Both the position numbers and the translations under genes were made by a program. This document shows positions 28,533-63,592 of a stretch of DNA of 64,000 nucleotides, one piece after another. How positions within the stretch are numbered: the stretch's first letter is position 1; each line of letters starts with the position of its first letter. The notes under the pieces were generated by a model. The model was not told the origin of the DNA and did not search any database. It saw nothing but the letters and a program-made list of their open reading frames with translations. The stretch comes from Myxococcales bacterium (GTDB lineage Bacteria > Myxococcota_A > Polyangia > Polyangiales > Houyiibacteriaceae), in NCBI GenBank assembly GCA_024640845.1, contig JAHEEE010000003.1, positions 26,257 to 90,256 on the forward strand, written 5' to 3'.

Positions 28533-29471
28533 TCATTGGGCGGCCGCTGCGCTCTGCAACAAGGGAAAGCCGAGGGCCTCACGCTGGGCGTACCAGGATT
28601 CGGCGACCGCGCGGGCGATGAGCCTCACTCGGCCGATGTAGCGCTGTCGCTCGGTCACGCTGATCGCGCCGCGGGCGTCGAGCACGTTGAAGTAGTGGCT
28701 GCACTTGATGACCGCGTCGTAGGCGGGCAGCACCAAGCGCTGCAGGGGCTCGCGATCGAAGCGGAGCGCCCCGCCCTTCCCACGCTTGTCACTGAGGCCC
28801 AATAGTTTCGCAACCTGCGTCTCATATTCCTCGAACAGCTCTTTTTGCAGGCGGGTGTCGGCTTGCTCGAAGTTGTACGTGCTCCACTCCCATTCGGCTC
28901 TCTTGTAGAGGTCGCCGTACCGGATTCCGGGAGCCCACTCGAGCTCATACACATCGTCGACGTCTTGCAAGTACATCGCGATGCGCTCGAGCCCGTAGGT
29001 GAGCTCGCCGCTGATCGGCTTGCAGTCGATCCCGCCGCATTGTTGGAAGTAGGTGAACTGGCTGATCTCCAGACCGTCGAGCCACACCTGCCATCCGAGG
29101 CCCCACGCCCCAAGCGTCGGCGATTCCCAATCATCCTCGATGAAGCGGATATCGTGGCGGCTCGGGTCCGTACCGAGAGCGCGGAGCGACTCGAGGTAGA
29201 GCTCCTGAATATCGAGCGGCGAGGGCTTGAGGATCACCTGATACTGGTGGAACTGCTGAAGGCGGTTCGGGTTTTCGCCGTATCGCCCATCGGTAGGTCG
29301 GCGGCTCGGTTCGACGTAGGCGACGTTCCACGGCTCGGGCCCGATCGCACGCAGGAAGGTGTGCGGATTGAACGTGCCAGCGCCGACCTCCGAATTGTAC
29401 GGTTGCACGATCAAGCAACCGCGCTCTGCCCAAAAGCGCTCGAGTGCGAGGATGAGCTCTTGAAAGGTCAT
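28533..29471 (-). CDS. glyQ: glycine--tRNA ligase alpha subunit
   Basis: The protein starts [14 protein letters not shown] and contains [23 protein letters not shown]. 312 aa. Confidence 0.96.
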
Positions 29472-29710
29472 GGGCGTGCTTTAGCAGAACCTCAGCACCA
29501 CGCCCGGGCGTCGCGGTGCACACGGGGCTCGGAAAAACACGACACGGGGTTTCACGGGACGGGCGGCCTGCAGATGCGGCCTCGTAGGACTGGGTAGGTC
29601 AGGCCGCGCACGCCGCCCTCGGACGGCGCGCCAATCGCGGTCGTTGCTGTCTTGCGATTGGCACTTCGTACGCCCGCTCCAACCCCTATCGCGTTTTTCC
29701 GAGCCCCTTA
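29472..29710 (-). promoter_or_regulatory. structured 5' leader of glyQS (candidate cis-regulatory RNA; class not recognised)
   Basis: A 27-bp helix forms between plus 29681-29707 and 29524-29551, enclosing about 130 nt that contain three hairpins. Two mutually exclusive hairpins lie next to the start codon (29495-29519 and 29476-29498). No credible ORF in the region. Confidence 0.55.
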
Positions 29711-29780
29711 TGGACGACTCTTTGCGAAAGATGGGCTGCGACGGTGTGTGCACGCGGAAGACCCAGTTCAGAAGACAAGC

Positions 29781-29895
29781 GCGGCAGCGCGAGCCGGAAC
29801 GGCGAAGCCCGGCGCGAAGCGCCGCCAAGGCCCGGCGAAGCCAGGGCCGCGGAGGGAGGATTACGCGGTGGGGGTGGGCGGGTGGATGTGACTAA
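29781..29895 (+). repeat. 115-bp intergenic element, copy A (G-rich strand on +)
   Basis: A hand alignment to the reverse complement of 62963-63077 gives about 98 identities over about 117 columns. This includes an identical 19-mer GGTGGGGGTGGGCGGGTGG (29867-29885). It also contains GAA-triloop hairpins at 29811-29823 and 29829-29848. Confidence 0.8.
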
Positions 29896-29946
29896 ACCAA
29901 ACAGACGCCGAAGGCGTCCGGGCGGGTGGATGTTATTAAACCAAAC
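29876..29946. repeat. two 27-bp direct repeats flanking a GACGCC-GAA-GGCGTC hairpin
   Basis: GGGCGGGTGGATGTGACTAAACCAAAC (29876-29902) and GGGCGGGTGGATGTTATTAAACCAAAC (29920-29946) match at 24 of 27 positions. The hairpin lies at 29904-29918. Confidence 0.8.
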
Positions 29947-29979
29947 CACGCCGCCAGTCCTCACCACCGCCGAAGCCAG

Positions 29980-30852
29980 CTATTGCTCGTCGTCCTCGTC
30001 GTCCTCGTCCCAGTCCTCGTCGTCCCAGTCCTCGTCCTCGTCCTCGTTAGCATCAACATCAGTGCGAGCGACCGTATCAGCGTCGGCGTCAGCGCCAGCA
30101 TCATCTTCCTCTTGGGCGTACGCGGCCTCCACAGCCGCAATGGCGGCCTCCTCTTGCGCGAGCAGCTCCTGTTCGGCCTCTTCCATGGCTTCGGCCGCTG
30201 CGAGCTCTGCAGAGGCGATGTCGATCGATTCGCCGATCTTGCGTTCGAAGAGTGCTTTGTGCTCGTCGGTGAGGTCGCTGAACTCCTGGAGCGTCGGCAG
30301 GTCCCCGAGGCTGCCCAAGCCGAAGAACTCGAGGAACTGGGGCGTCGTGCCATAGACGAGCGGGCGGCCGGGCTCGTCCTTGCGTCCTAGGATCTTCACG
30401 AGACCTCGGTCGGTCAGCACCTTGAGCGAAGAGCCGGAATCGACCCCTCGCACATCGTCGACCTCCGGCCGCGTGATCGGCTGGCGGTACGCCACGATTG
30501 CGAGCGTTTCGAGCTGCGCGCGAGTGAGACGAATCGGCTTTGGCGCGACGAGCGTCTTTACGAAGTCGGCCGTCTCCCGCGCCGAGCGAAACTGGTAGCC
30601 GCCTGCGACGAAATAGAGGTGGACGCCTCGGTGTTGGTAGTCGGACACGAGCTCGTCGAGCAGCGGTTGGACTTCGGCGATCGTAGCCCGCGCCGCGCGC
30701 GCAAGTCGCTTTGCGCTCACCGGTCCATCGGACACGAAGATCAAGCTCTCGAGCACGTTCTTCAGGGCTTCACCGCTGGGCGCGATGGGCGCTCCGGCGC
30801 CGTTCTCGGCAACGTCGTTGGTCTGGGCTTCTGCTTGGATCATGGTGCTCAC
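29980..30852 (-). CDS. scpB: segregation and condensation protein B, with a polyacidic C-terminal tail
   Basis: Winged-helix pair region (LESLIFVSDGPVS..., TRAQLETLAIVAYRQPITRPEVDDVRGV), with scpA immediately upstream. The tail is DEDEDWDDEDWDEDDEDDEQ. Confidence 0.9.
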   Translation of the reverse strand: MSTMIQAEAQTNDVAENGAGAPIAPSGEALKNVLESLIFVSDGPVSAKRLARAARATIAEVQPLLDELVSDYQHRGVHLYFVAGGYQFRSARETADFVKTLVAPKPIRLTRAQLETLAIVAYRQPITRPEVDDVRGVDSGSSLKVLTDRGLVKILGRKDEPGRPLVYGTTPQFLEFFGLGSLGDLPTLQEFSDLTDEHKALFERKIGESIDIASAELAAAEAMEEAEQELLAQEEAAIAAVEAAYAQEEDDAGADADADTVARTDVDANEDEDEDWDDEDWDEDDEDDEQ

Positions 30853-62962: not shown

Positions 62963-63077
62963 TTAGTTACACCACCCGCCCACCCCCACCCGTAGTCCTC
63001 CCTCCACGGCGTTCGCTGCGCTCCGCCTTGGCGGCGCCTTTGGCGGGGGGCTTCGCAGTTCCGGTTCGCGCTGCCGC
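62963..63077 (-). repeat. 115-bp intergenic element, copy B (G-rich strand on the minus strand)
   Basis: This is the reverse complement of copy A (29781-29895). The identical 19-mer is at 62972-62990, and GCGAAGC (as its reverse complement) is at 63050-63056. Confidence 0.8.
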
Positions 63078-63095: not shown

Positions 63096-63126
63096 TTGAC
63101 AATTCCGATGTGGGAACACATATATC
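63096..63126 (+). promoter_or_regulatory. candidate promoter plus palindromic operator for the Rrf2-cysK pair
   Basis: TTGACA (63096-63101), a 17-19 nt spacer, then CATATA/TATATC (63119-63126). The palindrome ATGTG-ggaa-CACAT (63108-63121) overlaps the spacer and the -10 element. Confidence 0.4.
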
Positions 63127-63133
63127 TGACTCG

Positions 63134-63592
63134 GTGAAGCTCTCGAACAAAGGCCGGTATGGCGTCCGCGCCATTTTCGACATCGCCTTTCATAGCGGAG
63201 GCAAGCCCACGCAGATCAAAGACATCTCGCGTCGGCAGGCCATTCCCCCGCGCTTTTTGGAGCAGATTTTCCAGGACCTGAAGCGGGCGGGCCTCGTAAC
63301 GTCGAAGCGGGGTCCACGCGGTGGCTACGCCCTGGCGATGGAACCGGATGACGTGCGTCTTGGCGATATCGTGCGCGCGCTTGAGGGCCCTATCGTGTTG
63401 GGGAGCGGCGACCGAAACGGCAACGCCGAGGGCGACGAAACTAGTAGGGTCGTCACAGAAAATGCGTTTTCCGAGCTCTCCGACAGCATAGAGGCGTGCT
63501 TCGACGCCATCACGATCCAAGATCTATGTGACCGAGGCGACGCACATGGCGTGCGCCGCGCTCCTCCTCGCCGCTACGTCTACTCCATCTAA
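63134..63592 (+). CDS. Rrf2-family transcriptional regulator (IscR/CymR-like)
   Basis: [18 protein letters not shown]...[41 protein letters not shown] 63134 gives the canonical Rrf2 N-terminus. The track start is GTG 63110. Confidence 0.88.

Follow-up and report, generated by a model that had tools for sequence, protein, structure and literature searches.

The 115-bp element described here is most probably (we put the probability at about 0.78) the core, or G, module of a non-autonomous, mobile and mosaic family of intergenic repeats, confined to a single genus of uncultured Polyangiales (Myxococcota). It came to attention as two inverted copies, hereafter copies A and B, in a window of 64,000 nucleotides that corresponds to C110:26257-90256 of a 4.1-Mb, 145-contig assembly (genome G000). 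The earlier note described the element as present twice, but this count applies to the window only; a search of the whole genome with nhmmer returned 81 matches to the 115-bp unit. The unit is real, but in place of a stand-alone, two-copy element it is the core building block of a mosaic family that numbers about 80 copies per genome. Intergenic repeats of this sort, dispersed and palindromic or mosaic in build, are familiar from other bacteria. The present one is a new repeat family of this type, akin to REP/BIME and BOX repeats, rather than a genetic element of a new kind. No published description of it was found in the literature searched, Myxococcota included.

Copy A and the reverse complement of copy B agree at 98 of 117 columns of a global alignment, exactly the figure first proposed. 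When copy B was shuffled 500 times and compared with copy A, the mean number of matches was 68.6 (sd 3.5) and the maximum 81, which rules out chance or low-complexity similarity between the two copies. Their identity is thus far above chance, and many further copies exist. The end motifs quoted in the earlier note were all recovered in both stretches, as were the invariant 19-mer GGTGGGGGTGGGCGGGTGG, the copy A hairpins GGCGC-GAA-GCGCC and GGCCCGGC-GAA-GCC(A)GGGCC, and the copy B mini-hairpin GCGAAGC. The proposed build, small GC hairpins with GAA-type loops followed by a G tract, is therefore supported. Single-nucleotide indels are frequent among the copies (the loop of hairpin 2 has 3, 4 or 5 nt; other sites are TACG(N)GG and GGGT(C)GG) and no reading frame is conserved, which rules out a peptide-coding element and agrees with the suggestion of a non-coding one, conserved at the level of nucleotides and structure. 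A covariance model (R1) was built from seven collinear G000 copies, copy A included, with the three hairpins specified by hand. Scanning the window with R1 returned exactly two matches, copies A and B (Table 1).

Table 1 Features of the two copies, their surroundings and the Y1 transposase gene. Positions are those of the window, except for the Y1 gene, which lies on contig C81.
Feature	Position	Strand	Remarks
L (left) module	29497..29780	+	284 bp; ~45 copies, 80-95% identity
G module, copy A	29781..29895	+	Intact: three GNA-loop hairpins and G tract; R1 131.4 bits, best in window
Hairpin 1, GCCG-GAA-CGGC	29793..29803	+	Overlaps the invariant GGCGAAGCC mini-hairpin at 29801-29809
Hairpin 2, CGGCGC-GAA-GCGCCG	29810..29824	+	Six pairs, 99.2% of cells paired, five changed on both sides
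Hairpin 3, GGCCCGGC-GAA-GCC-A-GGGCC	29829..29848	+	Variable outer stem around a GC-GNA-GC mini-hairpin
G tract, GAGGGAGGATTACGCGGTGGGGGTGGGCGGGTGG	29852..29885	+	Most conserved segment of the family
Composite tail	29896..29980	+	~16 copies in the genome
glyQ	28533-29471	-	Neighbour of copy A
scpB	29980-30852	-	Neighbour of copy A
G module, copy B	62963..63077	-	Solo; hairpins 1 and 2 decayed; R1 77.8 bits
Predicted canonical G-quadruplex motif, GGGTGGGGGTGGGCGGG	62975..62991	-	In copy B; regex scan, motif only
RAYT-like Y1 (IS200-like) transposase gene	C81:14169-14492		Beside mglA; flanks unique

The hairpin stems are kept by compensatory substitutions. In 150 copies from G000 and other species aligned by R1, 98.7% of the stem cells hold standard pairs as compared to 87.5% after shuffling of the partners, and the covariation score is 0.215 as compared to 0.053, a value reached by none of 500 shuffles; both comparisons use an alignment fitted to the model. 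Eleven of the 16 stem pairs have changed on both sides (194 cells), and sliding the partners by 1-3 columns reduces covariation to 0.005-0.044. The innermost pair of hairpin 1 alternates between C-G (65 copies) and G-C (41 copies), and its loop is G-N-A in 122 of the 141 copies listed. This hairpin occurs as CC-GAA-GG, CG-GAA-CG or CC-GCA-GG, and mixed forms are almost lacking. The loop of hairpin 2 ranges from 3 to 6 nt in the covariance alignment. In hairpin 3, all four pairs of the outer stem show compensatory changes (for instance C-G in 73 copies, G-C in 58 and A-U in 8). An alignment-free check agrees: an outer stem of at least 4 bp forms in 89% of 54 distinct variants and in 21% of arm-swapped controls.

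The non-Watson-Crick cells are unevenly distributed. Read on the G-rich strand, G·T (22 cells) exceeds A·C (7 cells; p = 0.008), which indicates that the fold of the G-rich strand is the one kept. Folding energies of single copies are no better than those of shuffled sequences (z-scores from -0.5 to +1.4, not significant), and stability by itself is no evidence in so GC-rich a sequence; the case for a structure hence rests on covariation. Downstream of the hairpins, the G tract keeps to its consensus with a frequency of about 0.9-1.0 in each column (145 distinct copies).

This tract had been proposed to form a G-quadruplex. At the motif level (regex scan for four G3+ tracts with loops of 1-7 nt), the proposal holds for copy B, which carries a canonical motif, but not for copy A. 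A 1-nt insertion after TACG breaks the first tract in copy A and in most G000 copies, so that they lack the canonical motif, although the G tract of copy A still has a G4Hunter score of 1.88. Of 70 G000 copies, 20 contain the canonical four-tract motif with 1-nt loops; in the cross-species set of 145 distinct copies, 82 do.

The G module is part of a larger, variable architecture that consists of an optional left module, one to three G modules and alternative tails. Copy A stands at the centre of a composite that spans about 484 bp (29497-29980), in the order L module, G module and tail. The L module starts with a perfect palindrome, GACGCCCGGGCGTC, and its first 82 nt (L1) always lie about 200 nt upstream of the G module, or about 170 nt in a second subtype. 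Beyond the G module, the copy A tail has the hairpin GACGCC-GAA-GGCGTC, partly duplicates the end of the G module and then runs through a C-rich stretch up to the scpB stop codon. The same tail type is found at C46, C49, C35 and C1. Overall, there are three tail types: TAAACCAAACC with a C-rich stretch, TAAACCTCCCGACGCCAATCGCG, and the partial end-duplication around GACGCC-GAA-GGCGTC. G modules also occur alone, as in copy B, or in direct tandem pairs (about ten G000 loci, and one triplet), in which the units after the first start at model position 8 and are separated by a C-rich linker of 38-46 nt. Other species yielded 133 G modules but only 13 L1 ends, which marks G as the core unit. Among the copies, hairpin variants are freely reassorted, and the main variant features are found in every pairwise combination, which indicates recombination or gene conversion between copies.

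No terminal inverted repeats were found, the left ends (GACGCCCGGGCGTC... or GCGG(C/T)AGCGCG...) being unrelated to the right ends (...GGATGTAACTAAACC and tails). Between L1 and the G module, no ORF was found in G000 or in 85 loci of other species. An autonomous master copy was thus rejected, L1 always lying about 170-200 nt from the G module.

Several interacting repeat families inhabit the G000 genome. Another of them is a dispersed repeat, CTGACCCCGTAAAGTGACTTCGTCACCACGGGGCTCCGCGCCGAAGGCCCGTGG, that is often found after the TAAACCTCCCGACGCCAATCGCG tail (for example at C93:31750-31830, C96:38480-38570 and C140:12830-12910). Hexamer satellites, (CAGCGY)n / (RCGCTG)n, form 72 arrays of at least three units, 22 of them inside predicted genes; examples outside the window are C110:94570-94613 and C62:25560-25640. 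One such array, adjoining a G module, is hugely expanded in G011, the closest relative of G000. The satellite was considered as a part of the element and rejected, as only 10 of the 72 arrays lie near a copy.

The G000 copies are all intergenic with respect to our own gene prediction, based on codon usage (3,439 genes, 90% coding), save two marginal overlaps with predicted genes. Eighteen copies adjoin contig ends and have nothing but a contig end on one side, as expected because repeats break assemblies. Within G000, BLAST matches to copy A reach at most about 95% identity, which gives no sign of very recent bursts, with the proviso that repeats collapsed at contig ends could conceal near-identical copies. 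Among 25 sampled genomes of the same genus, 17 contain the unit, often at more than 50 candidate sites, and eight are devoid of it (seven without a match and one with only two). The element-free genomes include the near-complete assemblies G008 and G014. In the genomes sampled from 16 other families of the order, the unit is essentially absent. The 32-nt core of the G tract, GGAGGGAGGAYTACG(N)GGYGGGGGTGGGYGGG, has exact matches in more than 20 assemblies at the species level, which carry the labels Polyangiales, Myxococcales, Myxococcota or Sandaracinaceae MAGs. Viral contigs, phage records and plasmid records gave no match to the element, and a phage or plasmid carrier was rejected on this ground.

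Comparison of orthologous sites shows that the element is gained and lost between species. Copy A lies between scpB and glyQ, in a G000 spacer of 508 bp whose stretch 29497-29980 consists of repeat. Wherever another genome of the genus has both flanking matches on one contig, these matches are adjacent. Base-by-base alignment of five relatives showed the scpB stop codon abutting the glyQ start in each of them (...TGA ATG...), suggesting a translational coupling that the 508-bp insertion has broken in G000. The C-terminal end of ScpB (window 29980-30060) is a long acidic (D/E) tail of low complexity, and its length and sequence differ in every relative.

Copy B is located between ddl and the promoter of an Rrf2-family regulator gene, and ends 18 nt upstream of a TTGACA (-35) box that is conserved across the genus. 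Its orthologue was found only in G011, which adds a second, inverted copy. The site is empty in eight other genus genomes, in six as judged by alignment and in G008 and G014 by a shorter gap between the flanks. Hairpins 1 and 2, lost from copy B in G000, are kept in the G011 orthologue. Copy B is the sole copy shown to be older than the G000/G011 split, and an old shared copy with decayed hairpins fits selection on propagation and not on a function at the site. The promoter-like elements of the regulator gene comprise TTGACA at 63096-63101, an A/T-rich -10 at about 63119-63125 and a GTG start at 63134, some 10 nt further on. From this spacing, the regulator mRNA would be nearly leaderless. The block CATTCTTGACAATTCCGATGTGGGAAC.CATA.AT (window 63096-63136) is conserved in the seven genus genomes aligned.

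G000 and G011 were compared over 90 kb of collinear sequence, with a coding identity of about 81-86%. Four sites carry G modules in G011 only, three as whole insertions and one as an extra inverted copy. The same region holds larger G011-only segments and one G000-only insertion. No target-site duplication is visible at scpB/glyQ, at ddl/Rrf2 or at the four G011-only sites, where junctions are inexact at 81-86% identity. Several insertions run into the stop codons of convergent genes or take their place, the stop then being supplied by the A/T-containing end of the element (…AACTAA…). An exact-pattern scan of metagenomes for a strain-level empty site gave no match. One G011-only insertion of 3.4 kb (locus L143, G011:C8, 17263-20636) carries two paralogous genes for secreted trypsin-like serine proteases, each with a G module ahead of it. 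The G011-only insertions of kilobase size that adjoin G modules were considered in the search for an autonomous copy; they encode secreted trypsin-like proteases, not transposases.

What could move such an element? One candidate is the single RAYT-like Y1 (IS200-like) transposase of the genome, which would read the hairpins as single-stranded DNA and mobilise the family as a REP/REPIN-type element. G000 has one Y1_Tnp gene (46.2 bits, confirmed by Pfam), and the family shares several features with the REP/REPIN elements of Pseudomonas and Enterobacteria that are served by RAYT Y1 HUH enzymes: GC-rich extragenic hairpins with compensatory change, apparent selection on one strand, a preference for gene 3' ends, and a lack of terminal inverted repeats and of visible target duplications, as in HUH-mobilised elements. 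In addition, GG(T/C)AG occurs at the 5' end of the element, within a CGCG-loop-CGCG hairpin, and some inverted doublets are seen in G011. However, the present unit is three to five times longer (115 nt and three hairpins, versus an imperfect palindrome of about 20-40 nt), and in G000 the doublets are mostly direct, inverted pairs being seen only in G011. The Y1 gene is not flanked by repeats and lies in a region (G000 C81:14124-14780) between an mglA-like GTPase gene and leuS. A Y1 match exists in most genus genomes (its genomic position was checked in G000), but over 24 genus genomes its presence is uncorrelated with that of the element: Y1 genes are found in five of seven element-free genomes, and are absent or sub-threshold in the element-rich G009 (100% complete), G016 and G004. 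A RAYT gene that is both flanked by the repeats and co-distributed with them, the hallmark of REP/REPIN-RAYT systems, was thus not found; Y1 was rejected as the partner, and mobilisation by this enzyme is unlikely.

Other enzymes fared no better. A TnpB/IS605 partner, which would make the family an IS200/IS605-derived PATE, was rejected as Cas12f1-like_TNB (PF07282) has no match in 12 genus genomes and Y1 is uncorrelated. The IS91-type Y2 transposase, present in eight of 25 genomes and uncorrelated with the element, was also rejected; it is absent from the element-rich G000 and G011, save for a weak partial Y2 match in G011. IS110 is sporadic (10 of 25 genomes), is absent from the same two genomes and was likewise rejected. 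Finally, the orientation of the element is not associated with local GC skew (Fisher p = 0.76), and a replication-strand bias was rejected. Such a link might be expected for lagging-strand transposition of single-stranded DNA, but the skew is very weak here, at only about ±0.02.

Alternatively, the repeat could be a cis element kept for the benefit of the cell. As suggested for REP/BIME, it might punctuate transcription, stabilise mRNA by its cluster of hairpins or bind a nucleoid or topology protein. The copies are strongly biased towards gene 3' ends and convergent intergenic regions and avoid promoters (26 convergent versus 8 divergent layouts), the G tract is near-invariant across species, and stable hairpins form on either strand. 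On the other hand, orientation relative to flanking transcription is random (15 sense versus 14 antisense between co-directional genes), the module and tail sequences have no visible T-run as in a terminator, and a long hairpin specific to the G tract and the C-rich tail was rejected, since shuffled tails pair with the tract as well as the real one does (mean z = -0.3). Furthermore, most sites in the 90 kb compared with G011 are occupied in one species only, eight members of the genus live without the element, and the sole old orthologous copy has decayed hairpins. A benefit to the host as the reason for the repeat is therefore improbable, although a cis function (terminator, mRNA stabiliser or protein-binding site) may exist as a side effect.

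It is very improbable that the copies represent small-RNA genes or regulatory RNA elements: covarying stems and a one-strand tolerance of G·U would fit RNA as well, but no promoter or terminator is conserved, orientation to neighbours is random, presence or absence between close species is unexpected for regulators, G-N-A triloops closed by C:G are a signature of DNA mini-hairpins, much weaker in RNA, and Rfam yields no significant match even at E = 10. The comparison with Rfam models, advised in the earlier note, gave no gathering-level match over the whole window, and only chance-level matches (E > 5) at 29400-30050.

We return to the mobile, non-autonomous repeat family as the preferred reading. 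Against it stand the failure to find terminal inverted repeats, a target-site duplication or an autonomous copy with a gene inside, the lack of co-occurrence with the transposase families examined (Y1, Y2, IS110 and TnpB), and the absence of signs of very recent bursts. The family would spread as selfish DNA, and the feature under selection would be the fold of the G-rich strand, most likely as single-stranded DNA, judging from strand asymmetry and loop chemistry. Indeed, the loops obey the d(GC-GNA-GC) mini-hairpin rule, a motif whose stability in DNA greatly exceeds that in RNA: the DNA mini-hairpin GCGNAGC has a Tm of 76.5 °C, while the RNA form of the related GCGAAAGC mini-hairpin is reported to melt at 39 °C (PMC13037366). 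The invariant G tract would then serve as a sequence-specific recognition site for a protein that moves or copies the element, and hairpins and G tract would both be needed for propagation. Any influence on adjacent genes would be a by-product and would not explain why the element exists. A more specific version, which we consider distinctly unlikely, is that the G module acts as single-stranded DNA, through very stable GNA mini-hairpins and a G-quadruplex-prone tract, and is recognised by an enzyme outside the HUH, DDE and IS110 families, or copied by templating linked to replication or repair. If true, this would be a new mechanism of repeat spread in bacteria.

Among known systems, the closest in architecture are the BOX elements of Streptococcus pneumoniae (boxA-boxB(n)-boxC) and the BIMEs of Escherichia coli, which are mosaics of REP units. 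Like them, the present family is modular, non-coding, strictly intergenic and rich in hairpins, has tens to hundreds of copies per genome and no internal transposase, and joins alternative flanking modules to a central module whose tandem number varies (one to three G modules here, with a C-rich linker). The modular build and intergenic location that characterise those repeats are both found here, with two L subtypes, 1-3 G modules and three tail types. The likeness is one of architecture only, and a sequence relationship is not expected. In contrast to BOX and BIMEs, the family belongs to the phylum Myxococcota, has no known binding proteins, and has a core made of three G-N-A triloop mini-hairpins and an invariant G tract, not of a single palindrome.

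The family also resembles prokaryotic MITEs (review PMC10969869; survey PMC11602168) in being small, non-autonomous, non-coding, multi-copy, intergenic and insertion-polymorphic. However, terminal inverted repeats (at least 10 bp) were sought and not found, no target-site duplications were seen at junctions that are not base-exact, and a parent insertion sequence was not found. With respect to the hairpins themselves, d(GCGNAGC) mini-hairpins are present at single-strand initiation sites and in phage N4 promoters (PMC13037366). Hairpin 3 and the GGCGAAGCC core carry the exact GC-GNA-GC motif, in which the middle loop base is free while G and A are fixed. There, each motif is an individual site with a function in the replication and transcription of phages or plasmids; here, it belongs to a dispersed chromosomal repeat.

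On present evidence the family opens no new class of system, and its unusual aspects are limited to the question of the mobiliser and to the DNA-type mini-hairpins. As to the latter, the copies amount to a clean set of natural data on DNA-type GNA mini-hairpins that compensatory changes have preserved. As to the former, a repeat family without an obvious transposase is a reasonable case for the discovery of a mobiliser by phyletic profiling. For the genus, the family explains many long, ORF-free and hairpin-rich spacers, which could be mistaken for riboswitches, leaders or small RNAs, and its repeats fragment short-read assemblies. It has also reshaped gene junctions, with one copy splitting the stop-start-coupled scpB-glyQ pair and another abutting a promoter.
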